A stretch of DNA of 63,952 bases, filler included, from Octopus bimaculoides (lineage: Eukaryota), in assembly GCF_001194135.2 (NCBI RefSeq). It is 8 parts of 7 records of this genome, joined end to end, with 100 filler letters (N's around TTAATTAATTAA, not from the genome) between each part and the next. Parts side by side here need not be neighbours in the genome. Positions count along the whole stretch, not along the records: positions 15,665 to 28,006 come from NC_068994.1; positions 28,107 to 35,109 come from NC_068982.1; positions 35,210 to 39,303 come from NC_068988.1; positions 39,404 to 56,134 come from NC_068991.1; positions 56,235 to 59,914 come from NW_026349347.1; positions 60,015 to 62,581 come from NC_068985.1; positions 62,682 to 63,952 come from NC_069004.1; 1 more part is not named here. One strand, given 5' to 3'. The notes beneath the pieces were generated by a model that had not been told where the DNA came from, searched no databases, and was given only the letters and a program-made list of their open reading frames with translations. Positions within the stretch are counted from its first letter, which is position 1, and each line of letters begins with the position of its first letter. Positions 26,556 to 63,814 of this stretch are shown here, piece by piece. The translations under genes were made by a program, and so were the position numbers.

Positions 26556-26604
26556 GTCTCCGATGAAGGGATACATTGGATTTTCCCTGAAACAGCTGGA
26601 AGAC
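26556..26604 (+). ncRNA. Type-I hammerhead-ribozyme-like motif (Penelope-type), cleavage triplet mutated
   Basis: gtct-CCGATGA-aggga...tccct-GAAA-c-agct-gGa-agac: stem I gtct/agac, 5-bp stem II, palindromic AGCT loop; GGA where GUA is expected. Confidence 0.7.
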
Positions 26605-26716
26605 TTTATCCATAAAATATATTTCTAACTTTACCATTGTTCTCTTTATCCTTTTCTCTATTTATACATATATATATATATGTAAATCAAAATAAGCAAC
26701 AGGATATCCAGAAGTA

Positions 26717-26804
26717 ATGCAGTACGATCGTTTCAAGCGTTTCCATTTAATTGAACAATGCAACCATTATATCAATTTAAATGCAGAGCAATCCTCGGCT
26801 GCAT
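26717..26804 (-). ncRNA. Type-I hammerhead-ribozyme-like motif with long imperfect stem II
   Basis: Minus strand: atgcag-CCGAGGA-(57 nt, catttaaattga pairing with tcaattaaatg)-GAAA-c-gatc-GTA-ctgcat; 6-bp stem I, palindromic GATC loop. Confidence 0.65.
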
Positions 26805-27250
26805 AAATACATAGAATTAAATTAAATTAAAACAGATGAATACATTAGTATAATTTTACCTAAAACCTCCAAGAAGGTAAGGAGATAGACAACGAACATG
26901 TCTTCATTTCAGCTTAGAAGCTACTAAGGTATCAGGAAGAAAGACTCTGGTCGAGATCTAGCTTGTCCCTGTTTTGGGGGTCAGTTTTAATTTATAGTCT
27001 TGTTTATCAAATCTTTCTATATCAAAATCTAAGGCCAAAGAACAAGGAGCAGTGTTTGTTAGGAAAGGGGCTGAGGGAGTCAACAGAAATCATAGTGGGT
27101 ATAGTCATAAAACTATCATATATATATATATATATGTGTGTGTAAGAACGACCGTGCGAACCAAAAGGAGAAATGGTGACGAATGGAAAAACAGGCTCCT
27201 TTTTTATAACGCGTCACACGGTCGAACACAAAAATATAAAATGATAAATA

Positions 27251-28006
27251 TGTTATAATTCTATAACAGAGAATTCGTAAATGCCAGTAAGATAAAAGAT
27301 AGGACTCAACCGATAGAGATGTATAACAGTAAGATTTATTGTAGCATTAAATTGTATGTCTGTGTGTATGTGAATGCGACATAATAAAACACAATATAAG
27401 ACTGGCCGTCATGTAAACAAAAGAGTGTGTGCGAGTAATACATGTATGTGTATGCGTGAGATACAGCGAATAGAAAAGAGTCAGTAACACGGATAAGAAT
27501 TTAAGATACCAGTTCTTTGTTAGAGTACACAGTGGTAAGTGTCTGTATATAAGAAGTTAAAGCGTTGGGGCAGAGCGATCACTCGTCGTGATGTTAGGGC
27601 TTCTATGCTGAGCCGGATTCTTGAATACAGATGTTCTTCGCAGGCTAAATTCTGTCTGTTAATTTTCGTGGTGAAGAAATCACACAAACAGGGCTGAAAG
27701 CTGCGGTTAGCGGTTGGTAGCTTGTGTACGTGTAGAGTCATGTTGACGCTGGCGGCGATGCTGGTAGTACGTAGAGTCGTGTTGACGCTGGCGACGTCGG
27801 GGGCGATGCCTGTAGTTCGTAGTTGAACGATGGTGTTGTTGATGTCGTCGCTGGAACTGGCTGGCTGTGTTACGCGTGTGTGTGGTCAGCGCCGGCCAGA
27901 TCTAGGATCTGAGGCTCGACGAATTTGGCGGGTATCTAACAGGCTATTTATAGCTGAAGGTAGACTCCAGAGAAGCATTAGAAGAACACTATCACGTGAC
28001 TTTATT
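27251..28006 (-). mobile_element. LTR-like sequence related to the 19164/21334 LTRs, truncated by a gap
   Basis: Minus strand aataaagtcacgtga...gagtctaccttcagctataaa matches aataaatcacgtga...gagcctaccgttagctataaa in LTR A; AATAAA about 85 nt before a taaca end at 27251. Confidence 0.55.
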
Positions 28007-28169
28007 NNNNNNNNNNNNNNNNNNNNNNNNNNNNNNNNNNNNNNNNNNNNTTAATTAATTAANNNNNNNNNNNNNNNNNNNNNNNNNNNNNNNNNNNNNN
28101 NNNNNNATATATATATATATGCGTATGTGTGTGTGCGTGTGTATGTGTGTATGTGTGTCTGTATGCAGG

Positions 28170-28760
28170 CACGGGTGAGTGGTAAGCTGTTTATTTCTCA
28201 ATCGTATGGATCCCTGATCAGACCCATTGGGTGACACCGTGGGCAAGTGCCTTCCATTACAGCCGCGGGTCGACAAAAGACTTGTGAATGGATTAAGTAG
28301 ACAGGAGTATTATGGAAGCCCATCGAACATCTATGTGCAAGGCCGGGTGAAGGTACAGGCAAGTCGGGTAGTCGCCCAGGACGCCATGTGTTAGGGGTCG
28401 CCAAGGAGGGTGTGACAAAGACAAGGACATTTCCACAACCATCAGTTTGTACACGCTGAAGTTCAGCTAGCCTTGGGCGCCAGCAATCATAGGGTCGGCC
28501 CTGTGTGTGTGTGTGTATGTGTGTGTGTGTGTGTGTATGTGTGTGTGTGTATTTGCATTTGTCCTCCGACCATTTGACAACTGTTGGTTATGTTTCCGTA
28601 CCTTAGCAGTTCTTCAATAAGAAACCTATAGAATAGGAACCAACGTTAGAAAACAGAATACTAGGATCGGTTTGTTCGACTAAGCCGTTGAAGGTGGTAA
28701 GGTAGTATGGCAGTGCCCCAGCATGACTGCAGTCAAATGGATGAAAGTAAAAGATAAAAA
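28170..28760 (+). mobile_element. Old SINE family A copy interrupted by a MITE
   Basis: Degenerate head 28170-28325; tail gtgccccagcatgactgcagtcaaat at about 28712-28738. Confidence 0.75.
28338..28503. mobile_element. Non-autonomous hAT-like MITE
   Basis: Termini caaggccgg...tcggccctg (CAGGGCCGG-type TIR); GC-rich 166 bp inserted in the SINE microsatellite. Confidence 0.6.
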
Positions 28761-29586
28761 GATGTGTGTGCGTACGTATANNNNNNNNNNNNNNNNNNNN
28801 NNNNNNNNNNNNNNNNNNNNNNNNNNNNNNNNNNNNNNNNNNNNNNNNNNNNNNNNNNNNNNNNNNNNNNNNNNNNNNNNNNNNNNNNNNNNNNNNNNNN
28901 NNNNNNNNNNNNNNNNNNNNNNNNNNNNNNNNNNNNNNNNNNNNNNNNNNNNNNNNNNNNNNNNNNNNNNNNNNNNNNNNNNNNNNNNNNNNNNNNNNNN
29001 NNNNNNNNNNNNNNNNNNNNNNNNNNNNNNNNNNNNNNNNNNNNNNNNNNNNNNNNNNNNNNNNNNNNNNNNNNNNNNNNNNNNNNNNNNNNNNNNNNNN
29101 NNNNNNNNNNNNNNNNNNNNNNNNNNNNNNNNNNNNNNNNNNNNNNNNNNNNNNNNNNNNNNNNNNNNNNNNNNNNNNNNNNNNNNNNNNNNNNNNNNNN
29201 NNNNNNNNNNNNNNNNNNNNNNNNNNNNNNNNNNNNNNNNNNNNNNNNNNNNNNNNNNNNNNNNNNNNNNNNNNNNNNNNNNNNNNNNNNNNNNNNNNNN
29301 NNNNNNNNNNNNNNNNNNNNNNNNNNNNNNNNNNNNNNNNNNNNNNNNNNNNNNNNNNNNNNNNNNNNNNNNNNNNNNNNNNNNNNNNNNNNNNNNNNNN
29401 NNNNNNNNNNNNNNNNNNNNNNNNNNNNNNNNNNNNNNNNNNNNNNNNNNNNNNNNNNNNNNNNNNNNNNNNNNNNNNNNNNNNNNNNNNNNNNNNNNNN
29501 NNNNNNNNNNNNNNNNNNNNNNNNNNNNNNNNNNNNNNNNNNNNNNNNNNNNNNNNNNNNNNNNNNNNNNNNNNNNNNNNNNNNNN

Positions 29587-29768
29587 CATCGCTTGACAAC
29601 CGATGCTGGTGTGTTTACGTCCCCGAAATTTAGCGGTTCGGCAAAAGATATAGATAGAATAAGTACTAGGTTTACAAAGAATAAGTCCTAGGGCCGATTT
29701 GTTCGACTAAAAGCGGTGCTCCAGCATGGCCGCAGTCAAATGACTGAAGCCAGTAAAAGAATAAAAGA
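29587..29768 (+). mobile_element. SINE family A, 3' half
   Basis: catcgcttgacaaccgatgctggtg...gcggtgctccagcatggccgcagtcaaatgactgaagccagtaaaagaataaaagaat. Confidence 0.92.
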
Positions 29769-30055
29769 ATATATAAGCACACAAACACTTGAATCTCTCG
29801 CTTTGCATATATATAATTCATGCACATACCCATCCCATACGCATACACACACACAATAGCAATACATACATACATATATACATACATACGTGGGGGTGAG
29901 CCGCATGTATATGGAATGTCAAAAAAGAAATGTGTGTGATGTTATAGATCGGGGGTAAAACATGAACTTGGGGTGAAAATAGAAAAATTTCTGAAATAAC
30001 AGAAAAACAAAAAAGCAGAAAAAGAATAGAGTAAGCCACGTAACTGAGAAAACAC

Positions 30056-30141
<86 letters not shown>

Positions 30142-30531
30142 ATGGTGACGCTGGTGGAGGTTGTGGCGGTAATTGATCCAGCTGATGACGTGAGGCTAGA
30201 GAGAGAATGGTTGGAGGATTATTGTAGCTTCTTATAGCAGTGGGAACCTTTAAGCGAATTAGTAATGTGCACACGGCTGCGTGTGTATATGTGTGTGTGT
30301 CGTAGTTATATAGGAGAGGAGGAGGAAGAGGAGGGGAGGGAAAGAATTGTAGATGAGTGTGTTGGTAATTGGTGAGCGCGTGTGTTTGCGTGTGTGTACT
30401 CAAGGGAAATACACCTACACACACACACACACACACAAACAGACATATACACACATGCGCGTGCGAGCGCACACACACACATGTATATAGGTGCATACAT
30501 ATTTATATGTACGTATGCATTTATGTATATG

Positions 30532-30594
<63 letters not shown>

Positions 30595-30861
30595 NNNNNN
30601 NNNNNNNNNNNNNNNNNNNNNNNNNNNNNNNNNNNNNNNNNNNNNNNNNNNNNNNNNNNNNNNNNNNNNNNNNNNNNNNNNNNNNNNNNNNNNNNNNNNN
30701 NNNNNNNNNNNNNNNNNNNNNNNNNNNNNNNNNNNNNNNNNNNNNNNNNNNNNNNNNNNNNNNNNNNNNNNNNNNNNNNNNNNNNNNNNNNNNNNNNNNN
30801 NNNNNNNNNNNNTATATCTTTAACACATGCCAAAACAGTATACGTGTGCCTATATATATAC

Positions 30862-30916
<55 letters not shown>

Positions 30917-31918
30917 TGTATATATAATTGTATATACCTGGTTATACATTTTTCACAGAATCATATACACACGTACATGCATGGAAGCCTCACACACACA
31001 CATATACAAAGAACTGCATTATTGCTTGCTTTTTCTAGTCTGTGAGGTGTATTTTGGAGGAATTAAGCTGCTATTTTTAGCGGTACTTGATGTTGCCATG
31101 GTAACTACTGTCACGATTGTTGCTATTGTTGTTGTTGGTAGTGGTGGTGATGGGAATGGCGGCGATGAAGCTGTTGATCGCGGTTGTGGTGGACAACATG
31201 CTATAACTATTCCTAGAACCACATTATCCAGTTCCTTTTTTTCTTTTTTTAAGAATGAATGGTTTGGAGCTTTGAGTAAATTTTGCCTGCTCTTTCTACC
31301 ACGTTATATGACCATTCCTCATTTCGTTTTTATTAATTAACATGTCTGAGTCATTAGATTGCGGCCATGTTGGGGCACTGCCTTGTAAAAGACCCATGTT
31401 CCGTTAAGTGAAGCACTTAACTTATAGGAATCTATTTTTGCCAAACTGCTCAGTTACAGAGACGTTAAAAAACCAACAGCGGTTGTCAAGTGATGAGAGA
31501 GGTAACAATCGCAAACTCGCACGCATACACACTCATATAAAGCAAAATAAAAAGGGATAGTTTGTTCATAAAATATGTTACGTCGTCTTACGTATCTTTC
31601 ATTAACAAAGATACCATTGATACTATGTATATCTTATAAGTAGATTGCATTGTTAACTCTTCGAAGACTGTGTAACTTTCATTTGAAATCTTTAGTAATC
31701 ATACTGGACCGCTAACATTGATATAGTATAGACTGTCATAACGACTGGTATAAGATTTTCTAATCCCTAATACATTGAAGGAACACTAAAGCAAAAATAA
31801 ATGAATAAATAAATATTAAGAACTTCTACTATCCTTGTAAATAATACAAATTAACGAAGGCAGTATGATTCTGGAACCCCTTAGGGAGAGCTCACAACTA
31901 TCGACTGTGACAAATAGG

Positions 31919-33050
31919 TACGAGGATCGGCTAAAAAGTTCATAGGCTCACCAAGACACTCTTATGGAATGTGAGCAAATGAGGTCTATTTTTTGACGTA
32001 GACCCCCACCCCTCTGCAGGTCAGGTCACACATTTTCTCCATCAGTATTCCAGTGCTTGGATCCCATTGGTAAAGAAACTCTCATTCTGTTGCTCAGAAA
32101 AATCATGAACTTCGGATATGACGTCATCACTGAGATACTGGTTCTCAGCCAAGTGGTTTTACATGTTGAAATACAGATGATAGATGGAGCCAAATCAGAA
32201 AGATAGGAAAAGTGATCAACCAGTTTAAAGCCACAATCACGCATAGCAGCTATTGAAACCAAAGACTTTTGTGCTGGAGCATTGTCCTGATGAAACAAGG
32301 CCCCTTCCTCAGTATTCCTGGGCGTTTGGTACTGTTAGCCTTTCCATTGGTGGTGTGTCCTTTTGAAGATAGTAAAATACACAATGTCTTTTGCATTCCA
32401 AAACCTGAGCCCATGATCTTCCCCTGCAGGTGATGATGGACAAAGAACTTTGCTTTCTTTGGAACAGGTGAAGAGGAGTGTTTCTGCTGCATGGATTGTC
32501 CCTGTCTCTGCTTCAAAATAATGAAAACAACACTCATTTCTGGATTAGGAAACATTCAGGGAAACCAACTGGATCTGCCTGGAACAATGTAAAAATTTTC
32601 CCATAATGTGACCAGCCTGGTGTGCTTTTGATCAGGTGTCAGAAGACGTGGCACTCACCGAGCAGAAACGTTCGTCATGCCAAATTCGCTATGCAGAAAA
32701 TTCTTAATTCCCTCACGGGACATGCTAATAGTATTGGCTTTTTGATTTATACCCAATCGCTTGTCATCTTCATGATTCTCCCTTCCCCAGCTAAATTCAG
32801 CAGCCCATTTTTGCGCTGTTGATAGAACTGGAGCCTCATCTCCTAATATAGCAACTATGTCGGCAGGAATATCCTTGCGGGGCTAAACCCTTTTTCTGCA
32901 GGAACCCGTTAACAAGACGATACCAGATTTTGTCTTTTTCAAGTGAAGTCGCTCTTAGTTAGTTACTTTTGAAGTCTTCTTTGAACAGTAAGATATCAAT
33001 TTACCTGGAAAAAAACAATGCTGTTATTAATAAGGAGGGCTCTAGTACCA
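31919..33050 (-). mobile_element. Decayed mariner (Tc1/mariner) transposon
   Basis: KHSSSPVPKKAK..GKIMGS.F; FHQDNAPAQKSLVSIAAMRDCGFKLVDH.SYLSDLAPS; terminus tacgaggatcggctaaaaagttc at 31919. Confidence 0.9.
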
Positions 33051-33670
33051 CTATTTCATAGTCAGTCTATTTATATGTATATACATATAAATAGACACTG
33101 TTTATAAGATATTTAGTTACACCATCTTACGTATATTTCATTAATTACTAATTACATAATGTAAATTGTACAGTCAAGACTTCTTGCCAAATCGTCAGAG
33201 ACCTAACATTTATACGTAAACATTATTGGAGTGCAGAAATGTTGAGAGAAGTAACTGCATAGTTTGGTAGAAGACAAATAGGACTTTGCACATTTCATAT
33301 ATATGTGTGTATGCAACAACGTATATATATATATATATATATGTGTGTGCGTGTGTGTGAGCGTGCATGCATGTATATATGTATGCATGTATGTATGCAT
33401 GTATGTATGCATGCATGTATGCATGTATGTGTGCATGTGTACATTTTTTATGTTTTGAATCGGTAGAAAGTTATGTAAGTGACACAAGGGCTAAAAATTT
33501 CGTATGTGACACTTATGAAACATGATGAATACCAGCCACAAAACTCTCCGCCCCTTTGACTTTTGCAATTTTCTGCTGGTAGAAAATAACAAAAGTATTT
33601 ATATAACGTATATATACACAGACATATATATCAGACATTATATTTAGTCATGTGTGTATGCGTATATATG

Positions 33671-33701
<31 letters not shown>

Positions 33702-34593
33702 NNNNNNNNNNNNNNNNNNNNNNNNNNNNNNNNNNNNNNNNNNNNNNNNNNNNNNNNNNNNNNNNNNNNNNNNNNNNNNNNNNNNNNNNNNNNNNNNNNN
33801 NNNNNNNNNNNNNNNNNNNNNNNNNNNNNNNNNNNNNNNNNNNNNNNNNNNNNNNNNNNNNNNNNNNNNNNNNNNNNNNNNNNNNNNNNNNNNNNNNNNN
33901 NNNNNNNNNNNNNNNNNNNNNNNNNNNNNNNNNNNNNNNNNNNNNNNNNNNNNNNNNNNNNNNNNNNNNNNNNNNNNNNNNNNNNNNNNNNNNNNNNNNN
34001 NNNNNNNNNNNNNNNNNNNNNNNNNNNNNNNNNNNNNNNNNNNNNNNNNNNNNNNNNNNNNNNNNNNNNNNNNNNNNNNNNNNNNNNNNNNNNNNNNNNN
34101 NNNNNNNNNNNNNNNNNNNNNNNNNNNNNNNNNNNNNNNNNNNNNNNNNNNNNNNNNNNNNNNNNNNNNNNNNNNNNNNNNNNNNNNNNNNNNNNNNNNN
34201 NNNNNNNNNNNNNNNNNNNNNNNNNNNNNNNNNNNNNNNNNNNNNNNNNNNNNNNNNNNNNNNNNNNNNNNNNNNNNNNNNNNNNNNNNNNNNNNNNNNN
34301 NNNNNNNNNNNNNNNNNNNNNNNNNNNNNNNNNNNNNNNNNNNNNNNNNNNNNNNNNNNNNNNNNNNNNNNNNNNNNNNNNNNNNNNNNNNNNNNNNNNN
34401 NNNNNNNNNNNNNNNNNNNNNNNNNNNNNNNNNNNNNNNNNNNNNNNNNNNNNNNNNNNNNNNNNNNNNNNNNNNNNNNNNNNNNNNNNNNNNNNNNNNN
34501 NNNNNNNNNNNNNNNNNNNNNNNNNNNNNNNNNNNNNNNNNNNNNNNNNNNNNNNNNNNNNNNNNNNNNNNNNNNNNNNNNNNNNNNNNNNNN

Positions 34594-34648
<55 letters not shown>

Positions 34649-35058
34649 TAGGCACTGGGAGTGGGGTGGGGTGATGTACGGCACATAAATATCTCGTAAT
34701 AGACGTAGCTCTTCAAAGTCAGCTTGTTATAGTTGTTAGCGGCGGCGGTAGTGGTGGTAGGGTTGGCGGTGGTGGTGGCGATGGCGATGGCGATGGAATT
34801 GATGGAGTTGGTGGTGGTTCAGTGGGTAGCGGTGATAGTTCTGCTATGGAACAGATTTCTTGATCACAGGCGCTCCATCTATGACCATCCTGTCGCTGTC
34901 CATACACACCAATCCCTCTATGCAGCTTTCTCTATGTGGATATATGTGTGTGTGTGTCTATGTATAGATACATTAATGCGCATGCATGCACATACATGTA
35001 CACACATAAATATATATGCATATATATATGTATGTATATATATATGTAAATATATATG

Positions 35059-35109
<51 letters not shown>

Positions 35110-35209
35110 NNNNNNNNNNNNNNNNNNNNNNNNNNNNNNNNNNNNNNNNNNNNTTAATTAATTAANNNNNNNNNNNNNNNNNNNNNNNNNNNNNNNNNNN
35201 NNNNNNNNN

Positions 35210-35282
<73 letters not shown>

Positions 35283-35849
35283 ATGTTTTCGAATCCCAGA
35301 CAGGGAATACGATATACGAGTGAGTGGAGAAACGAAAGAGAAAGGCACCACATTTAGGAGGTGAGATAGATGCATATATGCGTATATATGAGTGTGTGTA
35401 TGTGTGTGTGTGTGATGTGCATGTGTTTATATGTATGTGCATGTATGTGTGTTTGTGTACGCGTGAGAGTGTCTTTCTATGTGTATGTATGTATGTGTGT
35501 TTGTGTGCGCGTGTGTGTTTATGTATGTATATGTGTGTGTGCATGTGTGTGTATGCATGTATATATGCAGGAAAATATATGTAAACAGATATTGTCTGAG
35601 CAAAAGCATACAATGAAATAAAAATAACAACGGAGCTGAGTTATACTAAAAGATGTTTAATAATCGCTTTTCTTTATCTGGCTGGTTAGATTTTTCTGCT
35701 GCTTGGATTAAAGATCGAGCTTTGTCTTATATTGGCAACTCATTAAAATCCACTTATCTCTTCATTGAGCCGTTACTTTTACGACGAGACTATATATGTG
35801 TTTCAAGATAAAAATTATATCGTATAGCTACGAAAATATGCTTAGCCAT

Positions 35850-38935: not shown

Positions 38936-38954
38936 GAAAATGGGTAAGTTCATT

Positions 38955-39168: not shown

Positions 39169-39239
39169 TAAATTCATAATAAAAAAATAGAAGAGTAATA
39201 AAGAACGGCATACTATTGAAATACCATTCAATAAAACTC

Positions 39240-39303
<64 letters not shown>

Positions 39304-41920: not shown

Positions 41921-42055
41921 ATTTAGCAGATGCAACAGAATGACTCAGAGTTTCAAGATTTTTGGGCATTAGCACTTATAAAACTTCTCAAACTTTGATA
42001 AGTGCTGGTGCAGGAAACTCTTAGCCTTTGAGTCATTCTGTTGCTTCTGCTAAAT
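41921..42055. mobile_element. 135-bp foldback (MITE-like)
   Basis: 27-bp arms 41921-41947 and 42029-42055 with one mismatch, plus inner paired segments gagtttc/gaaactc and gcattagcacttat/ataagtgctggtgc. Confidence 0.7.
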
Positions 42056-42464: not shown

Positions 42465-43335
42465 GAGATTTAGGGACATCCTCTTCCACAGGTTCCCTCA
42501 ACCGCTAAAATGTGACACTTTTTCCACACACCTATCCTCATCCATTCTCACCACATGACCATACCAGTGCAGTCATCTCTCTTGCACACCACATCTGATG
42601 CTTCCTAGGTCCAACGTTTCTCTCAAAGCACATACACTCTGTCGTGTATGCACACTGACATTACACATCTAGCGGAGTATACTGGCTTCATTCCTTGCAA
42701 GCTTACACATGTCCTCAGCAGTCATAACCCATGTTTCACTGCCATGTAGCATGGCTGTTCGTACACATGTGTCATACAGTCTACCTTTTACTCTGAGTGA
42801 GAGGTCCTTTGTCACCAGCAGAGATAGGAACTCTCTGAACTTTACCCAGGCTATTCTTATTCTAGCAGCTACACTTTCAGAGCATCCACCCCTGCTACTG
42901 ACTTGGTCACCTAGGTAACGGAAGCTGTCAACTACTTCTTGTAGTTTTTCTCCTTGGAATGTGGCAGAAGTTGTTCTCTGCACATTTTCAGTGTTTATTG
43001 CTCCTGAGATCTGCCACATACAAAAACTATCTTCCCAGTTAGCCTTCCTATGATATTGCTGCACCTCTTATGTGTCCATAGCTTACACTGGCTACGTCTT
43101 ATAAAGTTTCTACCTATGCCTTTTCTACAGATCGAGCAGGGCCATCTACCTGAAGGGATTTGTGGTTTGTCTACCTTCCTACTTATTAAGACTTTGGTTT
43201 TAGCTAGGTTGACTCTTAGGCCCTTCGATTCTAATCCTTGCTTCCACACCTGAAACTTCTCCTCTAGTTCTGATAGTGACTCAGCAATTAGAGCAAGGTC
43301 ATCAGCATCAGCTCCCAGGGGCATCCTGTCTTATA
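42465..43335 (-). pseudogene. RTE-clade LINE reverse transcriptase remnant
   Basis: GCPWEL/ADDLALIAESLSELEEKFQVWKQGLESKGLRVNLAKTKVL; PCSICRKGIG zinc motif; VVDSFRYLGD; KGRLYDTCVRTAMLHGSETW. Confidence 0.95.
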
Positions 43336-44259: not shown

Positions 44260-45717
44260 GTATGCATCTGCACCACCGGATGCTCCTGAACCAGTAGTTG
44301 AGTGTCCCACCCATGTGGATGTGTCAAAACAGTTGTCGTGATTAATAATAAATTTCTCGTATATTCCATCTTCTGTCTTTCATTTGCCACAAATATATAC
44401 ATATATATGTATATGTATGTATATATGTATGTATATATGTATGTATGTATATATGTATGTATGTATGTATGTATGTACATGTGCACATGTGTGTATGTGT
44501 GTGTGTGTGTCTGTGTGTGTCTGTGTATGAGTGTGTATGTATGAGTGTGGGGGCACATAATTACAAAATATTTTTTAAAGTTTTGTCACAAACAGGTTAC
44601 AAAATGTCAAAATATTTCTTCAATTTATTTCATTTTAATAAGGCCGTTCATCAATAATTATGTTTATTTATAGCTATTACAGAGCAGTACAAACTTTATA
44701 TATACATATATGTACACACACACACACAACACACACACACACACACAACACACACACACACACACACTCACACGCACACTCACACACACACATACACACA
44801 CACACTCACACACACACACACACACACACTCACACACACACACTCACACACAAATATATAATACATATCATGAGAGTTGGGGGCCTTGTGTCTATTTTAG
44901 AAATAATTATTATCTCTTTGACTTTTTACATGCGTTCACTGTGACATCAGATACCCTGCTATGCCAAGCAAATAGGGTATCTGATGTCACAGATATTATT
45001 GCTACTTAGGTTGACTGCTAATCTTAATAAAGCTGATATTTATTATCAATTATTAGTAAGCAGTCATTTATCTGTTGCGTAATTTATGGGTAATCAAGGT
45101 TGTAGTCCACCCTTTCAAATATGGGGCCCTATGTCTCTGAAAGAAGTTATGGGTGTATCTATATTGACTCTCTCTGGAGACAAGTTTAATACTGAAGGAT
45201 TCCTGCTTTAAACCATTTATAATTAAATATCAGAATTTCAAAAAAGAATTAAATCATTTGTACCATCTGGAATTAGTTCACAATTAGCTGAAGTAAAAGA
45301 CTGCCTTTTCCTTAAAAGCATATTCAGGAGAATTGTTGACTCTTTGAGGGTATTCCCCTTTCCAACTTGAGTTGGTTGCAATTGTTACTAGGTGTTTATT
45401 TATCTCTTTTGAAGCAAACTTAGTTTCCATACATGTATTTACTATAGTTTTCCTGTCTTTGTTATCCAAATTCATGCCACCAACCACTCTAAGTCATTTC
45501 TCTTAACTCATGTACATTATATGTATTATTATATATATATNNNNNNNNNNNNNNNNNNNNNNNNNNNNNNNNNNNNNNNNNNNNNNNNNNNNNNNNNNNN
45601 NNNNNNNNNNNNNNNNNNNNNNNNNNNNNNNNNNNNNNNNNNNNNNNNNNNNNNNNNNNNNNNNNNNNNNNNNNNNNNNNNNNNNNNNNNNNNNNNNTGT
45701 GTGTGTGTGTGTGTGTA

Positions 45718-52625: not shown

Positions 52626-52629
52626 GTGG

Positions 52630-54239: not shown

Positions 54240-55702
54240 ATGCAGACAATGTACCATGTGCAAGCCATTCACTCAATCTTTTTTGGTAAAAGGCAGTGTC
54301 TACTGTACCTGAAGTTGTTGACTACTTTGGCATCTTGCAGCCACAGTATGTTTTCTTTTTTGAATCTCCTCAAAGATGGGAGTATTTTAAACACACGAAG
54401 CAATCTAGCCTTTTCTCTAAAGAGCTAAAGTGTAACTAGATGGTCTGCACATTATGAAGCAGTTCCAGCAAACAAAAATTGATATAAGGATATTTTACAA
54501 ACTCTCAAACATAAGTTTGAAGACTCAGAAGAGAAGCCTAAATGCAAGCAAGATGCAAAGAATTAATACCATAAGTTGGGAAGAAGTTATGGAGCATTTT
54601 AACAAAACAAGAAACTCCAAACCCCTGGTTCTGATGTATTTGAAGGATACCTTCTGCTAGCATCTTTGCTTTCATTTGTTAAAGAACTACAAGAAAATTC
54701 AGCCAACAGGATTGCAGACTATGAATCAGTAGCAAAAGGTTTATGTAAATATATCACCTCAAATTATTCTGATGTTTCCAGATGCATTGTTACAAAGAAA
54801 TTTGCAGATGGAGCAAGTGGTAGGGCTTCTTTGAAAGGGGTTGAAAAATTTAGGATAGAAGTTCTAATTCAAAGAATATTTACACCTAAAGAAATCCCGA
54901 AGAAAACACACCATCTAAAATGCAATGCACAGAAGTTCATCAGCTTATTTCTCAGCAATAATCATTTGAAATATTCCCTAATATTACCACTGCACTTCAG
55001 CTGTACTTGACAATGCCAATCACGAGCTGTGAAAAAGAAAGGAATTTCTCAAAGCTTTCCTTTATAAAGAATAAATTTCGGTCAACCATGACTGAAGAGT
55101 GCTTAAATTCCTTATGCATATTGTTTCTAGAAAATGACATTGCAAGGAAGTTGTAAGGGAATACGTTGCTACAGAGAAAAGAAAAAAATAGTATTTTGTA
55201 ATTTTCATATGTTTCTTAAATATGAGATTATTAGATTATATTAACTGTGGTACTTGTTATGTTTTATGTCTTTATTCTATGATGCATTATACATGTATAT
55301 AATGCTTCCTTAATTTTCAAGCCCCATAAACTTAAAAGTATCAGGCATAGCCTGGAAAATATTTGTTCACACCAGTAACTTTGAGAATCAGAATCTGAAA
55401 TGTACTTAAATTTGTAAAGAAAACTGTGATGATCTGCCATGAAACAACCACATTGACAAAGATATCAGTGATTACCCGCTCCTTGTTTCTGATGGAAAAT
55501 GGGCTCACTGTCAGGCTCATTCTTAAGGACTCCATATCATCACTTCACCATTTGGGCTATCAGAGCCTCAAAGCTAGAGTTCTTTGCAAAGGAACGAAAA
55601 TTCTTTGACTCTTATTGGATGTTACCTTACTATTGCTGGTTGTAAAGGGGGCCCCCATAACATTTTAAGGTTCAGGGCTCCAATATTGTAGATCTGCCAC
55701 TG
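54240..55702 (+). mobile_element. hAT transposase remnant with 3' terminus
   Basis: VPCASHSLNL (54251); TRWSA (54435); ALQLYLTMPITSCEKERNFSKLSFIKNKFRSTMTEECLNSLCILFLENDIARKL (hAT dimerisation domain); TIR-like gatctgccactg at 55691-55702. Confidence 0.88.
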
Positions 55703-56089
55703 CTGGTTACCCCTTATCTTTTTTATCCTTTAGCATTTACTTGTTTCAGTCATTAGACTGCGGCCATGCTGGGGCACTGCCTTGAAGAATTTTAGTAGAA
55801 TGCATATTTCCCAGTACTTGTATTTTTGTTTTTAAGCCTGATGCTTATTCTATCAGTCACTTTACTGCTCTGTTTAATGCAACGGTAATTATGGGTTGAT
55901 TTATGTATACCAGTGATTCTCTACATGGTATCATATGATCTCCATTGATGTGAGGGTACCCCACATTTCTAAGAATTATGTGAGAAAATGAAACATGTAG
56001 GACCCACAGTAGTTTCTGAGAAAGTCACATACAAATTTAAATACTAAACCTTCAGTCACTTTTGTCATAATCCTCTTAATCCATTATCT

Positions 56090-56134
<45 letters not shown>

Positions 56135-56340
56135 NNNNNNNNNNNNNNNNNNNNNNNNNNNNNNNNNNNNNNNNNNNNTTAATTAATTAANNNNNNNNNN
56201 NNNNNNNNNNNNNNNNNNNNNNNNNNNNNNNNNNTAGAGGTGTACTCCCGAGTGGAATCTGGATGTTACCCCACTCGGATTTACAGTTGAGAGAGGGTTT
56301 GTACAAAAAATTATAATTAAATTGAGCTTTATATATAAAA

Positions 56341-56593
56341 TATATATAAAATATATAGTTTTAGGGAAAATAACCAAGTTTCAAGAACTCATCGATGAAA
56401 ATCCACTATCACATATAGAAAAATTAACAATTAAAAGCACAATAAATGAGTAATATAAAGCAAAGTAAATATCATAAGATAAATATATATATTGTGCTTT
56501 TAATTGTTAATTTTTCTATATGTGATAGTGGATTTTCATCGATGAGTTCTTGAAACTTGGTTACTTTCCCTAAAACTATATATTTTATATATA
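56341..56593. repeat. Near-perfect inverted repeat, 104-bp arms, 45-bp spacer
   Basis: Arms 56341-56444 and 56490-56593; one mismatch seen. Confidence 0.95.
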
Positions 56594-57051
56594 TATATAC
56601 ACACATAAACACACACACATATTATATATACATAGTATATATACACATATATACGTACATGTATATATACACAGAAACATATGCAGAAATAGGCTCTTGG
56701 AACATATTTGTCAAAAGCACATTCATCACATTCATTGATTGAAAGTACATTGACCAAAAGTCATATTTGTAGAAAACAAATGGACTGAAACACATACTGA
56801 TTAAGAACACATTAGTTAAAGAAAAGGTGTAATATTCATTGAAATTTTAATACTTTTCAAAGAAATAGTTAAACAAATATACAAAACAGTGCAATTATTT
56901 ATTTATTGATATTTGAATGAAATGTAATATATTTTAATGTCTTTAACTTTGGAAATTGTTTCTATGTAAATTAGAATAAATAGATTATGTATAAACTACA
57001 AATTTGATGTCTGGCTTAGGAAGATGTTTGTGATAGCCATTAAATATAAAC

Positions 57052-57600
57052 ATTCATGTCATATAATCGTAAAAGTCTTTCAGGAAAACATGCTGGATTA
57101 ATTGATTTTGACTGTTTAAGTGTCAGTCAAGTACTGGTATCTATAAAATTATTCTGGTCTTGTACTTCTGTTGGAAACAATTATAACAAGAATGATGAGT
57201 GATGGTCAATGAAATCAGTCTGTGGGACCAAGATTTTGTGATTAAATCCAGTCATTGTTAGCTTTGCTTGTCATCTTTCATGGTTAATGAATTAAGTATC
57301 AGTCAAAGCATCAGGTAGGTCATTCACATCAATAAATCATGCGTGTCTTTCAGAAAAACATGCTGAATTAATTGATTTTGACTGCTGAAGTATCGATCAA
57401 GTACCAGTATCAATGGAACTGTTCTGGTCATGTGATTCTGTTGTAATTAATAATTCAAGATCAATGGGTGATGAACTCATAGAGCATAGAACGAAATAGT
57501 TTGTGGCATTTGATTCTGAGATCAAATCCAACCATTGTCAACAATGCCTGTCATCTTTCATGGGTCAATGAATTAAGTATCACTCAAATTATTTGGCAGG
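57052..57600 (+). repeat. Diverged about 270-bp tandem duplication containing SINE-B-like remnants
   Basis: gtctttcag.aaaacatgctg.attaattgattttgactg occurs in both copies (starting about 57052 and 57321). Confidence 0.8.
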
Positions 57601-57605
57601 TCTAG

Positions 57606-57790
57606 CCCTTTAGCATTTTAAACCAGCCATATCTGGTCCAAAAATTCTGCATGTTTTATGTTCAAACTGGCCATATCTAGCCTCTTACACCTACCCTGTA
57701 ATGTCATTCTAAAAATACAAGCTACACGATAATGCATGATTAATTCAAAACAATGTGAATAAATAACCATTACTTTTGACAGAGGGCTAT
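57606..57790. mobile_element. piggyBac-like MITE remnant
   Basis: Starts ccctttagcatt; family-typical body; degenerate right end gagggcta. Confidence 0.45.
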
Positions 57791-58233
57791 TTGATTACTC
57801 ATTGCTATAATAGTTGCGTGCCACTGTTAGCAATTATTATGGCTATGACCACTAAAGAAGTTAGAACCTTCATTTTTATTCTTTAAAATTTTGCTTGAAT
57901 TTCTAAGACAAGCAATTATCCTTATTATATACTGGCAACTTCACTGTCATGTCCTCATCTTATAATATGCTTTTGATCAATTTGTCTTTTGACCAATCTG
58001 TTTTTCTATGAATATGTATTTTGGCTAATTTGACTTTCAACAACTATATTTTGGTCAGTTTATCTTTTGAACGGTATGTTTTCAACCAGTGTGTTCTCCA
58101 TGAACGTTCTTCTGATGAATGTGTTTTATCCACCCAACTACACATGTATATACATATACATACATATATGTACATAAAGATATACATGTACATCTCTACA
58201 TATACATATTTATACATAAAACACAACCCCCCC

Positions 58234-58272
<39 letters not shown>

Positions 58273-59659
58273 CACACATACACACATATGCATACATACA
58301 TACATATGCGCATGTATGTATGAGTAAAAGAAAAATATGAAATGAAAAAAGTTGAAGATGTTTGTTATATGACAGTAGTTACCGTTCCTTCATTTGAAGA
58401 ATTGTAGTTCATTAAAATCTGTCTGCTCACATCTTTATATGTGTGTGTGTGTGTGTGTATATGTATATTAAATAAAATAGATAAATCAGGATTTAAAACT
58501 ATTGCAACATATTGGTAGAAGAGTTACTTTGACCCATTTTATTTGTCTATTTAGTTTCACATCAAAGAGTACTTGTATATTGTTAGATAGTTTTGGAACA
58601 CAGTTAATAACGTTTCATGTTAATTGATTGAAGTGATCTATTTTCCAATTTACAAACATCTTTTTTCGATATACTATAGTTTCTCTATTGATTGTAGTAG
58701 TAGTATTTCATTGAAAAGACCTCAATTTATTTACACAGGTTTTGGACAAAATCCAACTCCCAAAGAGAAAATCACTTAAGACAGGAATTTAACAACCCTT
58801 TTGTAACCAGAATTCTGTTAACATACAACACCTAGTTTTGTATGACATTGCTTCTTTTAATTACTATATATAGCTGGCTAAAACTACAACATTGTGCTTC
58901 TCTGGGATTCTTAAAGAGTATCTGATTATTCAGCTTGATCTTAAAGGGACCCTCTGTTGTGTCAACATGTTTTGTCCCATTATTATTGAGCAACACCATC
59001 TCTGCTATGTAAACTATGGCTTCTTTCTCATATTGAAGAATTTAGTAAAGTAACTGCTATTATAAATCTGGTGTTTGGAACATAAATTAATGTGAAATGT
59101 TGATGGAAGTTTTAAATTTAGATTACTTTAAAATAGGAAGTTTATATAACAGAATCAAGAATATTCTCAGGTGAGTTGGTATCAAAAGGATTAAACAGTA
59201 TGATTTCTTTTGGATGGGTACAATATGTTCAATCTCTAAATCTTTTACAACATCCAGAAAGCTATCTAAACAGACCAAACTTTCAAAGAACTTACTTCTG
59301 TTCTGTAACATTGACAAACTGTTTCTTATTTATGAATTAAACTTTATAGTTTTAGAAAGAAAGCTAGAAATTATGACATTCATATAATTTTGAAAAGCAT
59401 TTTTGTGATAGAGCCAACTTGTAGAAAACTTAACTCTATTCAAAAAAGTTCATAATAATAGTAACAATCACTATTAGCATAGGTAACCAGCAAACATCTA
59501 TGATTAAATTAAAATTTTCTACTTAAGCCTTTGTCATCAGAATATGTTGCTGTACAGATAAAAGTGGCAGAGAAAATTCAACACAATAAAGGGTTGTAGA
59601 CATGTTTTGAAAGGGTCAGTCTACAGACATTCTTTAAAATGTGGCATAGATGTTGTCGC

Positions 59660-59870
59660 TGTAATCATTATCATTTAACATCCACTTTTCCTTGCCTGCA
59701 TGGGTCCAACGAAATTTGTTGAGGCAGAGTTTTGACAATCACAAGCTCTTCCTGTCATCAACCCAAGTAAGAAAACATTTCTCATGGCCAGACATATTTT
59801 TCACTGAAGGCTGGGAATGAACAGTATATTCATTTCATGACCACCACATGATGTCAATAGAAGGATACAC
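59660..59870 (-). mobile_element. Degenerate RTE-tail-related repeat
   Basis: atcattatcatttaacatccacttttcc...gcatgggt resembles the tail at 45718. Confidence 0.5.
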
Positions 59871-60365
59871 ACAAACACACATACGTACACACATACATCT
59901 GTCTATTGATCTCTNNNNNNNNNNNNNNNNNNNNNNNNNNNNNNNNNNNNNNNNNNNNTTAATTAATTAANNNNNNNNNNNNNNNNNNNNNNNNNNNNNN
60001 NNNNNNNNNNNNNNAAATACTCATAACCCTAACCCCCTAAAGCTAAAACCAGTACAAACGCACGAACGATGTCATAAATAACAGTACCGCCGATAGTTTT
60101 TGTTGACAAACAATGGCACTAATTTTATTCAAGGGGAAAGATCCCATTACACCGCTACAACGTGTTGTTGATAAGCCACAGCAGTAATTGTGTTCACCTC
60201 AATAGACGTCAGTGATTGGTTGAAATTACCGAAATACGGCAACTTTTAACATGAAATAACTTCGAATATAAAAATTTTTCTCTGTTCTATAAGACAAAAT
60301 ATACAAGTATATGAAGTTTTAAAGCGTTTCGGTTGAAAACACACTAAATAAAAACTAAATTAAAA

Positions 60366-60986
60366 ATGGTGTCCGCTAAATCAGAAAGATCCGTAGAATG
60401 TACAACAAATCCAAGAAAAGAGCGACTAGAAAATACGGAAGAGAAGATAGAAGAGAGCTGCAGAAAGGAAGTAACCGCAAAAGAGAAAGAAGTAGTGGAA
60501 ATAGGAAAAAATAAATGGTAAAATGCAACAGGAAAAAAACGAAAAAAGGCGAGCTAAACTGTAACCCACATTCCACACCCATCCCACCCACACCCTCTCA
60601 GACCCATCCACTCCCTGCAGACACTAGGCCTATCCATTCCCATCCGACACAAAACAAGAGGCAAACACATACAAAGAAACCCAAGCCCCTCCTCCAAGTC
60701 AAAAAAGTGTAGGATTTATATGTTGCTTAGCGACGAACTGTTAAGGGATACGGCGGAATGGGACATAAAGCATATTGGAACTGCGGTGTATGATAATGTG
60801 AAGGAACATCACACGTGTGTAATACCAGACAAGAGACAGGAGAAAAAAATACAAGAGTATATGGATGGATTTTATATTTGGGAGGTGGACTGCAGCTGGA
60901 GCTCATTCCCAGAATTTACTACGTACGATAGGTGGTTGGAGGAAACAGGTATCGATGTGTTAGAAGGTTCAGGATTTAAAAGGTAG
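60366..60986 (+). pseudogene. Disrupted ORF of unknown family, probably repeat-borne
   Basis: K/E-rich segment, P-rich linker and a complex 88-aa segment (DTAEWDIKHIGTAVYD..HTCVIPD..FYIWEVDCSW..WLEETG), separated by stops and frameshifts. Confidence 0.4.
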
Positions 60987-61148
60987 AAAATAAGGCCACT
61001 CGTAAGTGGGGCGAGTGGTTCCATTTCCATTTTATCATTTTCATGTCTTCATACGTTATAACATTCATTTTATTTTTTATATATGTTTTATGTTCCACGT
61101 TTTGTTTGTCACCTCTACGGTTAGCCTCCGGTGGGCAATAAAGAAATT

Positions 61149-61548
61149 GAGATACCGAAATATCGTTCAGCAAATTTAATTATGGAACTCTTCTTTATTT
61201 ACATATTCCTTCCAGATGTGTCATAGCAGTCCTAATATTATCTATAAAAAAAATGAAGTAGACTGACATATCAAATTTTGAACCCGTTGAAGGAACACGA
61301 GATACCGAAATATCGTTCAGCAAATTTAAATATGGAACTCTTCTTCTTTATTTACATATCCCTTCCAGTGGAGTCATAGCAGTCCTAATATTATCTATAA
61401 AAAAAATGAAGTAGACTGATATATCAAATTTTGAACCCGTTGAAGGTACACGAGATATCGAAATATCGTTCAGCAAATTTAATTATGGAACTCTTCTTTA
61501 TTTACATATTCCTTCCAGACGAATCATAGCAGTTCTAATATTATCTAT
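61149..61548 (+). repeat. Tandem repeat, about 150-bp unit, about 2.7 copies
   Basis: gagataccgaaatatcgttcagcaaattt starts at 61149, 61299 and 61452. Confidence 0.95.
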
Positions 61549-61614
61549 TTAAGGTTTAGATTACTGTATCTAAATACAAACTAAATTTTTCAAAACCGTT
61601 ATTCTTGGCAAGAA

Positions 61615-62390
61615 ATTACTTTCTTGCCAAGAAAGTAATTTTTTTAGTGCTGAAATAAAAGTTGTTTTTTTTTCATACAAAGAATGAACTTTAATCAATT
61701 ATATATTTTCCATTTTGTTAGATGACTTTTTGCCATCTTTCTGGACTTCATGATTCCATGCTCATAGGACTGTTGGTCCTTATCAACCAGAAACTTACGC
61801 AAGTGCGATTTCAGGTCATCATTATTGAAAGTTTTTCCATTCAAAGAATTTTGCAAACTTCGAGATAAATGACAATCGGATGATGCAAGGTCAGGGCTAT
61901 GTGGTAAACATCTGAACTGATCGTTTGATTCCTTGGAAGCAGCTCAAAATACACACCTTTGTAATACCACCAAATTGATAGTACGACATTTTTTGATGCA
62001 ATTTAGCTTTCAGTGTAGTTTGTTCTGGTTCATTACCCTTGGACCATGATCGTTTGCGATTGATATTATTGAAGAGAATCCATTTTTCATCACCAGTGAT
62101 GATTCGTTTCAAAATAAGGTCGATTTCATTGCGCTTGAGATGCATATCGCAAATATTAATTCGTTGTGTTAAGCGAATCTCTTTCAATTTAAAGTGGAAC
62201 CCAAATATAGTGATTCTTAATGAGCTCAAGACATTTTAATTGATTTTCAATTGTTGTGTGTGATACATTCAACCTCTCTGCAATCTCTCGCACAGTTATA
62301 TGATAATCAGATTCAATTATGGCTTTGATTCGGTCATCATCAACTTTTGTAGGTCAACTTGAATGTTAGTTATCTTTGAGTGAAAAATCT
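61615..62390 (-). mobile_element. Mariner transposase remnant with internal deletion
   Basis: ICDMHLKRNEIDLILKRIITGDEKWILFNNINRKRSWSK..TTLKAKLHQK; C-terminal ERWQKVI.QNGKYIID; TIR-like caagaaagtaatt near 61625. Confidence 0.92.
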
Positions 62391-62719
62391 CCAGAACAGA
62401 AATTTTAAAACCATTTCTGACATGTGTGTTCTGTTAAGAAACCAATACCATAAACTTTGCGTTTCTCTTTGTGAGCCTCAGCAGTTTTCTTGCCTTTACA
62501 GAAATAAAAAAAAGCAAAATATGCTGAAAATGTTCGTGTTTGCACTCCATGTTAAAATTGACACTGAACTAACAGTTGTGANNNNNNNNNNNNNNNNNNN
62601 NNNNNNNNNNNNNNNNNNNNNNNNNTTAATTAATTAANNNNNNNNNNNNNNNNNNNNNNNNNNNNNNNNNNNNNNNNNNNNTGGGAGAGAGGGGGGGCGA
62701 TGAAAGGCTTTCGAAGTCA

Positions 62720-63058
62720 GCCTTATTGTCATCCATCACTTCCGCCTCCTCCTCGTCGCCATTTTCATCAACCGTTTTGCCATCATCATCATCATCGTCA
62801 TCATCATCATCATCATCACTTTTGTCAACGTCATCGACTTCGTCATCATCAGCCTCGTCATCCTCATCTTCATCAACATCATCATAAACATCATCATCAT
62901 CATCTTCGTCTCAATGTCATCGTTATCATTATCATTGTCATCACCCTCATCATCATCATCATCATAACCATCATCTTCATTATAATCGTCATCACTGTTA
63001 TTATCACCCTCGTCGTCATCAACATCATCATGATCACCATGATCATCATCATCATCAA
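62720..63058. repeat. Cryptic (CAT)n tract
   Basis: Direct reading; source of the poly-H/I ORF. Confidence 0.92.
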
Positions 63059-63548
63059 CGTACGAACAGTAGAGCCTGTCAGAAGCCCTTCTAACTACTA
63101 GAGCTTATTACCGTTGTGGAATGCTGTATGTAGTTACTGCACACGCTCTAAATAGCAGCTAAAACTCACACAATGCGTCTCCAAAGGAGAAGGCGACATT
63201 TTGACGAAATGCTTCCAAATAGAGAGTTAAGATGGATGGCCTTGATTGGAATGTCTTCAAATTTACATCTGCATCTGTTCTATTTTGTGAAAGATTGCTT
63301 ACTAACACATGACATTTTACATCAATCTGTCAAATTACTGTATTTCTAAAGCATGAAACTACTGGTAGCTCTCTTTAAAACTCAGTATGTATTAAATTAT
63401 ATACATGTATGTATGTATGTATGTATGTGTGTATGTATGTATGTGTGTATGTATGTGATTCTGATTTTAAAGATGTTACAAACATGTCTTTAAATGTAAC
63501 CTAAAATATAGCATTTGTTCATATAATTCGTATGATGTAGATAGAATT

Positions 63549-63752
63549 GGCGTGGTCGTGGTCGAGCGATTAAGAAGCTCGTTTTGCAACCACGTGGTTC
63601 CGGTTTCACTGTGAGGCTCCTTGAGCTAGTGTCGTGTACTATAACTCAGGGACGACCAACGCATTGAGACGGATTTAGTACACTTAAACTGAAAGAAGGT
63701 CGTCAGTGCTCCAGCATGGTCGCAGTCAAATAACTGAAACAAGCAAAAGAAT
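63549..63752 (+). mobile_element. Degenerate SINE family A, middle deleted
   Basis: Head remnant, then gtgctccagcatggtcgcagtcaaataactgaaacaagcaaaagaata. Confidence 0.8.
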
Positions 63753-63768
63753 ATCACAAAATATCACA

Positions 63769-63814
63769 AAAACTGTTACTCAGAGTTTCACGTTCCCGTT
63801 CGTCGGACAGTTTT
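63769..63814 (-). ncRNA. Minimal type-I hammerhead-ribozyme-like motif with intact cleavage site
   Basis: Minus strand: aaaactgt-CCGACGA-acg-ggaa-cgt-GAAA-c-tctga-GTA-acagtttt; 8-bp stem I, 3-bp stem II with tetraloop, stem III ACTCTGAGT self-complementary. Confidence 0.8.

Follow-up and report, generated by a model that had tools for sequence, protein, structure and literature searches.

Does the hammerhead core of Octopus bimaculoides depart from the textbook form? The question is raised by three hammerhead-like motifs in a window of 63,952 nucleotides (eight joined parts of the assembly GCF_001194135.2), each of which carries C rather than U at core position 4 (C4 and U4 in the following). 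An earlier note took the three motifs for members of different repeat families and suggested a core variant common to the whole lineage.

Hammerhead-shaped motifs in the window

All three motifs are present (Table 1). Positions 26556, 26804 and 63814, by which they had been located, mark the 5' ends of stem I, and AGCT, GATC and TCTGA, the loops given in the earlier note, are those of helix III. A loose type I hammerhead descriptor allowing any base at position 4, composed only after the motifs had been seen, gave three matches in the window, all with C4 and none with U4. Local dinucleotide shuffles contained 0.012 C4 matches on average and none out of 500 reached three. A strict descriptor is satisfied by motif 3 alone among the three, and the heptamer CCGANGA by itself shows no enrichment in the window (9 versus 5.9 expected, with 9 reached in 16 of 100 shuffles). 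With Rfam, three local scans around the motifs gave no hammerhead family at E ≤10, and no hammerhead was found among the 150 of 296 matches listed for the whole window. The listed matches are mostly miRNA models over microsatellites.

Table 1. Positions of the motifs and of neighbouring or related repeats, counted along the window
Feature	Position	Strand	Details
Motif 1, type I hammerhead-shaped	26556..26604	+	CCGATGA core; stem I 26556-26559/26601-26604; core box 26560-26566 (C3 26560, C4 26561); stem II 26567-26571/26584-26588; GAAAC 26589-26593; helix III loop palindromic AGCT; predicted cleavage after 26600
Motif 1 repeat, 3' tail	26605..26651	+	Ends just before (TA)n tract; depth falls over 26633-26658
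(TA)n-type microsatellite	26660..26684		Repeats of motifs 1 and 2 meet here tail to tail
Motif 2, type I hammerhead-shaped, long helix II	26717..26804	-	CCGAGGA core; stem I 26799-26804/26717-26722; core box 26792-26798 (C3 26798, C4 26797); GAAAC 26730-26734; helix III loop palindromic GATC
Fold-back formed by a pair of inverted 3' halves, motif related to motif 3	41921..42055		Fold z -10.6
Abundant repeat unrelated to motif 3, adjoining its tail	63571..63753	+	Presumably SINE-like; matches at 2918, 9702, 14798, 15104, 29716, 42102 and others
Motif 3, complete type I hammerhead-shaped	63769..63814	-	CCGACGA core; stem I 63807-63814/63769-63776; core box 63800-63806 (C3 63806, C4 63805); stem II 3 bp with GGAA loop; helix III 3 bp, near-palindromic, loop TCTGA; predicted cleavage after 63777
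Second copy of motif 3 repeat, inverted, 5'-truncated	63824..63952	+	Self-inverted match 63758-63856

Around the core boxes, stems I, II and III form the type I three-way junction in the window copy of motif 3 and, given the U16.1 of its family, in motif 1; in motif 2 the window copy is mismatched at the base of stem II. Stem I comprises 4, 6 and 8 Watson-Crick pairs in motifs 1, 2 and 3, respectively. G12, A13, A14, A15.1, U16.1 and H17 are present at the family level in all three (DNA runs). U occupies 11.1 in all three motifs instead of the usual G10.1-C11.1 pair. The canonical core C3 U4 G5 A6 N7 G8 A9 is retained in family 2, and families 1 and 3 differ from it by C4. Two flaws of the window copies had gone unmentioned, namely, in motif 1, a G replacing the U of 16.1 (26599) and, in motif 2, a missing pair at the base of stem II and a spacing of 57 nt between the core boxes.

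Helix III is short and of the palindromic type seen in Penelope-like terminal repeats, and its stretches are predicted to pair with themselves as dimers at -10.9, -10.0 and -7.9 kcal/mol. The predicted monomer folds are neither better than those of shuffled sequences nor hammerhead folds; for motif 3 the hammerhead fold is predicted at -6.0 versus a minimum of -7.0. At the sequence level, the three motifs are confirmed as true, non-chance type I hammerhead-shaped sequences, for which self-cleavage is predicted. That they are chance matches or single copies decayed independently is hardly credible. The missing Rfam matches would fit such an origin, which does apply to the C of motif 2 (see below), but the shuffles contradict it, and for motifs 1 and 3 it is refuted by the thousands of contigs sharing their C4 forms. 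Outside the window, a metagenome scan returned two loci, both discarded as chance matches of one kind lying in a bacterial ORF (G4, without helix III or stem I), and a viral contig collection scanned for the motif returned none.

Position 4 in the three families

Family letters were read from contigs of public runs aligned to the window. All family percentages are shares of contig depth, not copy counts, and runs X17, X19 and X20 are RNA runs by guess only. The contigs assign the motifs to three different abundant families, in agreement with the earlier note. Motif 2 belongs to a family with U4 in 99.9% (X1), 99.7% (X14), 99.6% (X19) and 100% (X20) of the depth; the change 26797 G>A accounts for 47288 of 47346 in X1 and 121243 of 121584 in X14. 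The window copy differs from the X1 majority at 10 of 97 positions among the entries listed, and its C4 is, judging from these contigs, a private mutation of a diverged copy in a normal U4 family. Since motif 2 reads 99.9% U4 against a reference with C4, U4 at motifs 1 and 3 would have been visible as well.

In the motif 1 family C4 is the majority form. No U4 entry for 26561 is among the 40 entries listed, from which, with 30 more unlisted, the U4 share is bounded by inference; X20 gives no coverage there. G16.1 is private to the window copy (26599 G>T in 99.9% of the X1 depth), which is therefore likely dead. In X19, guessed to be RNA, C is found at 16.1 in 24% of the depth, a form likely to be inactive. 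Among the entries listed, variation affects 1 of 36 structurally constrained positions compared to 15 of 55 in flanks and loop (Fisher p 0.004).

The motif 3 family has about 97% C4 in organisms A and B, with U4 at 2.8% (X1) and 3.1% (X14). The U4 share is 1.5% in X17 and 35.7% (11 contigs) in X20, obtained from organism C. A comparison CpG in stem II varies by 2.4-2.7% and 3.9-4.4%, versus 2.8% and 3.1% for U4, so the minor U4 is at the level expected from CpG decay of an ancestral C after insertion. Between 63760 and 63812, the free core position N7 is the sole position exceeding 6% in any run, besides position 4 in X20. N7 is U in 82% of the depth in X1 and 47% in X14, and C4 is required in both N7 forms (minimum shares of about 15% and 80% of the depth in X1, 50% and 44% in X14), which makes it common to at least two source lineages of the family. 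Young families are uniform in any case, and the invariance of family 3 is thus weak evidence of selection.

Taken from the contig alignments, C4 is family-specific and present in two families with differing stems. The argument that a C shared by three motifs does not result from decay holds for motifs 1 and 3, whose families have a C4 majority, and fails for motif 2, whose U4 family is the outcome that, in the proposed consensus comparison, was to speak against a lineage-wide variant. A replacement of U4 in the hammerheads of this animal as a whole is accordingly very unlikely. All three window motifs and two of the three families carry C4, as such a replacement would have it, but family 2 has 99.6-100% U4 in all four runs, covering organisms A, B and C, which is refuting unless this family entered only recently from a different lineage, and family 3 has 36% U4 in organism C.

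Nature of the carrier elements

An inverted, 5'-truncated copy lies beside the 5' end of motif 3. This copy is head to head with the motif, begins at the GAAAC box, without the first core box, and continues into the 3' tail. A similar arrangement was found at 41921-42055, where both halves have the helix III of motif 3 and a different stem I arm; without a first core box, position 4 is unreadable there. No such partner was seen at motifs 1 and 2. Near the motif 1 tail, 26652-26696 was excluded from the depth reading as repeat. As to the partial tandem copies that form pseudo-LTRs, a duplicated unit of approximately 340 bp occurs upstream of motif 1, and its matched parts exclude the hammerhead. 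Penelope-like elements have been described with inverted truncated partners and with ends at (TA)n. The repeats found here, with their palindromic helix III, truncated copies lying head to head and (TA)n ends, are likely ends of such elements, as far as sequence anatomy indicates.

No reverse transcriptase or GIY-YIG ORF remnant linked to the motifs was found when the flanks were searched by Pfam and homology, the copies being short and decayed. Protein searches for element ORFs were negative for all 6 frames and for two sets of candidates (0 of 441, 0 of 61), while 18 long frames gave only a Mariner remnant, a reverse transcriptase fragment near 43300 and low-complexity matches, none linked to the motifs. 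The Penelope label consequently rests on anatomy. Five short helix III motifs were also compared as text with the supplement of Craig 2021 in search of missed Naiad hammerheads, with 0 matches to the published Naiad, Chlamys and Hydra consensus sequences; line breaks may hide a match.

The lack of a linked ORF, and the collapse of family 3 depth just beyond the 5' arm of stem I (from approximately 103,000 at 63812-63815 to 1,400 at 63820-63823 in X1), would also suit non-autonomous retrozyme-like or fold-back carriers of the same C4 pattern, and retrozymes, too, have hammerheads of type I that possess a helix III. Such carriers are nevertheless improbable, because head-to-tail tandem units of 170-400 nt containing the motifs are absent from the window, and both the truncated partner lying head to head and the (TA)n ends agree with insertions of Penelope-like elements. 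Moreover, a preprint, in the part available, derives animal retrozymes from Penelope-like elements in any case (bioRxiv 10.64898/2026.07.22.740005). Non-LTR retrozymes of animals share with the present families a type I hammerhead, a short helix III and a high copy number (PMC7229834 and the same preprint, available parts), but are head-to-tail tandem units, whereas the copies found here occur singly or in head-to-head arrangement.

Comparison with known hammerheads

The closest known system, according to the available parts of Cervera and de la Pena 2014 (PMC4209133), is formed by the type I hammerheads in pLTRs of metazoan Penelope-like elements. Shared features are the type I topology, the short helix III with a palindromic loop needing dimers, and the dispersed, truncated copies with close opposite-strand pairs. 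The motifs described here differ by U11.1 in place of the usual G10.1-C11.1, and no ORF link was found for them. Their Fig. S3 has U4 in 56 of 56 metazoan motifs, compared to C4 here, with the listing of Lunse et al. (PMC5785218) lying outside this comparison; the core variant reported is U3-A8. The printed search descriptor has a fixed cuganga, as do the animal-retroelement hammerhead surveys whose methods were compared, this one among them (available text).

U4C itself is in print. It occurs as a natural viroid hammerhead variant with reduced activity in vitro that yet sustains infectivity (Ambros and Flores 1998, via the accessible part of Perreault 2011, PMC3088659). A CYGANGA descriptor is in use for type I-III hammerheads of deep-sea RNA viromes (PMC13481778, text in part); these natural motifs likewise have C or U at position 4, but are viral or metagenomic, with G10.1-C11.1 required and no animal retroelement link in the text available. 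The viroid substitution affects the same position in a variant of an RNA pathogen, whereas C4 is here the majority form of two high-copy animal DNA families.

Possible function of the C4 core

With moderate probability, motifs 1 and 3 derive from two abundant C4-majority families that are likely Penelope-like terminal repeats, and motif 2 from a U4 family with a private C. Family letters, conservation pattern and insertion anatomy were observed. In the RNA, the palindromic helix III would pair two copies, and since dimer pairing through helix III is described for Penelope-like hammerheads, it supports the Penelope-like reading. The paired copies might be cut after position 17, slowly and perhaps aided by the element's protein, with protonated C4 supplying the U-turn hydrogen bond normally given by U4; protonated C is able to substitute for U in a U-turn (PMC4105743, available part). 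C4 might persist through source lineages if slow or conditional cutting suffices, or is not rate-limiting, for retrotransposition. The absence of Rfam hammerhead matches, the unsupportive monomer folds, the low activity of CUGA-turn mutants and the 24% of likely inactive C16.1 at motif 1 in X19 count against this explanation.

A possible, if less probable, alternative is that C4 killed the ribozyme in the source elements, which then amplified without cleavage, the fold being kept for protein binding or priming or the families being merely young. U-turn mutants are weakly active (PMC3088659, PMC9901934), all CUGA-turn mutants except a C3-G8 swap being low-active in a mutational scan of another hammerhead (PMC9901934). 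One Penelope-like hammerhead is protein-dependent, and insertion in vitro does not require this hammerhead (PMC11167929; these three sources in part). Naiad elements multiply without canonical hammerheads, and the C16.1 form is common in X19. On the other hand, subfamily-level changes in the DNA runs affect N7, flanks and loop II but none of G5, A6, G8, G12-A14, U16.1 or the stems, and the viroid U4C retained enough activity (PMC3088659, available part).

The favoured reading, C4-majority families of Penelope-like type, could be extended, though this is speculative: C4 may be an active, selected core, fixed at least twice in animal Penelope-like elements with unrelated stems, perhaps together with A10.1-U11.1, as a switch that is slowed or is gated by pH or protein. 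In each genome, copies numbering from thousands to tens of thousands would then be invisible to cuganga surveys, and some elements called hammerhead-less may have them.

A descriptor fixed on cuganga would miss the C4 families 1 and 3, as the earlier note had anticipated for strict searches. With two of three families in one window being C4, surveys of such genomes may have counted too few hammerheads or wrongly reported none. Family 3 provides a natural experiment on the role of these ribozymes. Its C4 belongs to a CpG, and the mutation most easily reached is therefore the one back to the textbook U; in organisms A and B this reversion does not rise above background, whereas N7 has switched freely, and organism C has both forms. 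U4 and C4 can be compared directly within a single natural motif.

Hammerhead-like motifs in the window

The window is AT-rich, gapped, and strewn with microsatellites and repeat fragments of an animal-type genome. Repeats of a similar kind occur in octopus. Three hammerhead-like motifs, each with C at core position 4 (C4, CCGANGA), are present where an earlier note had placed them (26556, 26804 and 63814, the 5' ends of stem I). A loose type I descriptor allowing any base at position 4, composed after the motifs were known, matched exactly these three in the window. With this post hoc descriptor, full C4 motifs seldom arose by chance (mean of 0.012 C4 matches per local dinucleotide shuffle; three matches in 0 of 500 shuffles), and the heptamer CCGANGA by itself was not enriched in the window. 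Rfam scans of the motif regions did not recognise the motifs. All three carry U at 11.1 (26588, 26735, 63790) instead of the common G10.1-C11.1 pair, with A10.1-U11.1 in motifs 1 and 3; descriptors requiring G-C at this pair would also overlook all three. Only motif 3 is complete in its window copy. The window copy of motif 1 has G at 16.1, and that of motif 2 has 57 nt separating the core boxes and lacks a pair at the foot of stem II.

Table. Motif cores and other repeats in the window
Feature	Position	Strand	Basis or details
Motif 1 core C3	26560	+	sequence inspection
Motif 2 core C3	26798	-	sequence inspection
Motif 3 core C3	63806	-	sequence inspection
Related fold-back	41921-42055		sequence self-comparison and folding
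Inverted repeats, MITE-like	56358-56431 / 56503-56576		74 bp, 98.6% identity, 71-nt spacer
Shorter self-inverted stretch	25303-25371		sequence self-comparison
Shorter self-inverted stretch	44939-44992		sequence self-comparison
Shorter self-inverted stretch	61602-61633		sequence self-comparison
Decayed Mariner transposase remnant	about 61900-62500	-	PF01359, PF17906

Position 4 in the three families

Family letters were sampled from contigs of public sequencing runs placed on the window, using five of 24 runs (X1 and X19 from organism A, X14 and X17 from B, X20 from C); depths are added contig depths and not numbers of copies. Families 1 and 2, the repeat families of motifs 1 and 2, were sampled with 1753 (X1), 2492 (X14), 245 (X19) and 17 (X20) contigs, family 3 with 2998 (X1), 3268 (X14), 370 (X17) and 93 (X20).

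The earlier note proposed a lineage-wide C4 core. This is refuted by the motif 2 family, which reads U4 nearly throughout X1 (47288/47346), X14 (121243/121584), X19 (733/736) and X20 (17.1/17.1). At the family level, C4 is the prevailing form in two of the three families. The C4 of the motif 2 window copy is one of several private changes (10 of 97 positions differ from the X1 majority among the variants listed), and the motif serves as a positive control, U4 being still visible with a C4 reference.

For motif 1, which lies outside X20 coverage, no variant at 26561 was among the 40 listed (30 further ones exist); the neighbours 26553 and 26555 vary at 60-62%. Since the weakest variant computed among those listed peaks at 8.9% in one run, the U4 share, as bounded by this ranking, is likely below about 9%. 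The window G16.1 is private, with U in 99.9% of X1. Among the variants listed, variation keeps away from structured positions (1 of 36 in stems, core and loop III vs 15 of 55 in flank and loop II; Fisher p 0.004, a post hoc test on interdependent positions), against which counts a C at 16.1 in 24% of the depth in X19.

In family 3, U4 accounts for 2.8% of the depth in X1 (6090/217276), 3.1% in X14 (13681/440264), 1.5% in X17 (105/7027) and 35.7% in X20 (815/2285; 11 contigs). C4 is here part of a CpG. A second CpG, in stem II, is decayed at a similar level (2.4-2.7% in X1, 3.9-4.4% in X14), so the small U4 share in A and B seems to have arisen when an ancestral C decayed after insertion. In X20, about 1% is changed at the stem II CpG; the U4 there must have a different origin, probably a U4 subfamily. 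N7 divides family 3 (U in 82% of X1 and 47% of X14), and as computed from the depths both N7 forms must include C4 copies; C4 therefore went through two or more source lineages. The N7 site, too, lies in a CpG and is for this reason weaker as evidence of selection. It also shows that a CpG transition could become fixed in a source element at N7, while in A and B a change of the same kind at position 4 did not.

Long family 3 contigs with unique flanks in X1 have depths of about 6-14, from which a copy number in the order of ten thousand can be roughly estimated, depth not being a copy count. At 63812-63823, just beyond the stem I 5' arm, depth falls from about 103,000 to 1,400 with mixed loose ends, as if most copies began at the edge of the ribozyme. 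Part of the fall may come from short contigs and from divergence of the window itself.

Carriers of the motifs

The helix III stretches are palindromic or nearly so. Computed dimers self-pair, and the predicted monomer folds are not hammerheads. Motif 3 stands head to head with an inverted, 5'-truncated partner copy, and motifs 1 and 2 meet tail to tail at a single (TA)n tract. Palindromic helix III, inverted truncated partner and ends at (TA)n are shared with Penelope-like elements, for which such traits are described in the available parts of Cervera 2014, Craig 2021 and Weinberg 2019. Membership in these retroelements is graded as no more than likely, because window protein searches found no RT or GIY-YIG remnant linked to a motif and a text search of five short motifs against the Craig 2021 consensus file gave no match.

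Upstream of motif 1, an A-rich partial tandem duplication of about 340 bp (25860-26550) had no protein match in the frames tested. In the loose-end consensuses, the tails downstream of motifs 2 (26697-26716) and 3 (63758-63768) have a short stretch in common, which hints that U4 family 2 and C4 family 3 may be related; the window copies of the two motifs align poorly. Loop III of motif 2 (26726-26729) shows two changes in the X19 loose-end consensus with the palindrome kept, a hint of possible selection for dimer pairing.

On the 5' side of the motif 2 core (26799-26860, minus strand), the stem I 5' arm closes with a U-rich tract and a CAG that abuts C3; roughly 45 nt farther upstream lies a heptamer resembling a branch point. 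The family-majority letters at 26804 and 26808 leave the tract U-rich. The arrangement is similar to what is described for Drosophila virilis Penelope, where an intron ends at helix I, in the available part of Cervera 2014; splicing would exchange the 5' arm of stem I.

Relation to known hammerheads

The U4C substitution itself is already known, from a viroid case and a viral descriptor. To our knowledge, Lunse et al. is the likeliest paper to list such core variants. CYGANGA is used as core descriptor for viral hammerhead motifs in the part available of PMC13481778. The animal motifs aligned in Cervera 2014 (PMC4209133) are all U4 (56/56), in contrast to families 1 and 3, and its printed descriptor fixes cuganga, the string also used in the search of Craig 2021, according to the accessible text. 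No report of C4 families in animal retroelements was found in the literature searched, whose limited reach left Lunse et al. and Ambros and Flores 1998 outside. By title and abstract, none of the papers listed on hammerhead ribozymes and octopus deals with C4 families, and in a term search the main text of the octopus genome repeat annotation (PMC13282606) does not mention ribozymes. In the Craig 2021 supplement, the 5' ends of four bivalve Naiad consensus sequences share a conserved CCGAGGA that lies between short hairpins close to where the element begins. The text shown contains no GAAA box; the feature was judged not to be a hammerhead and read as a conserved structured leader.

Possible basis of C4

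Dimers would form through helix III and cleave after position 17 at a lowered rate. In the sources as far as available, U4 makes contact with the A6-N7 phosphate (Perreault 2011, PMC3088659), and protonated C is able to substitute for U in the U-turn of another RNA (PMC4105743); by transfer, a protonated C4 may replace U4 in the hammerhead U-turn. The same partly available sources and two others describe a viroid U4C with reduced activity in vitro and infection still possible (PMC3088659), weak CUGA-turn mutants in a mutational scan of another hammerhead (PMC9901934), and a Penelope-like hammerhead that requires protein for cutting and is dispensable for insertion in vitro (PMC11167929).

With family letters, conservation pattern and insertion anatomy as observed, C4 could mean that a slow ribozyme is tolerated or that ribozyme function was lost. 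Loss of function is opposed by the conserved core and stems, and because of this conservation tolerance is preferred as the more probable explanation. C4 is thus a trait of two of the three families and not of the whole lineage, with a catalytic effect that is predicted.
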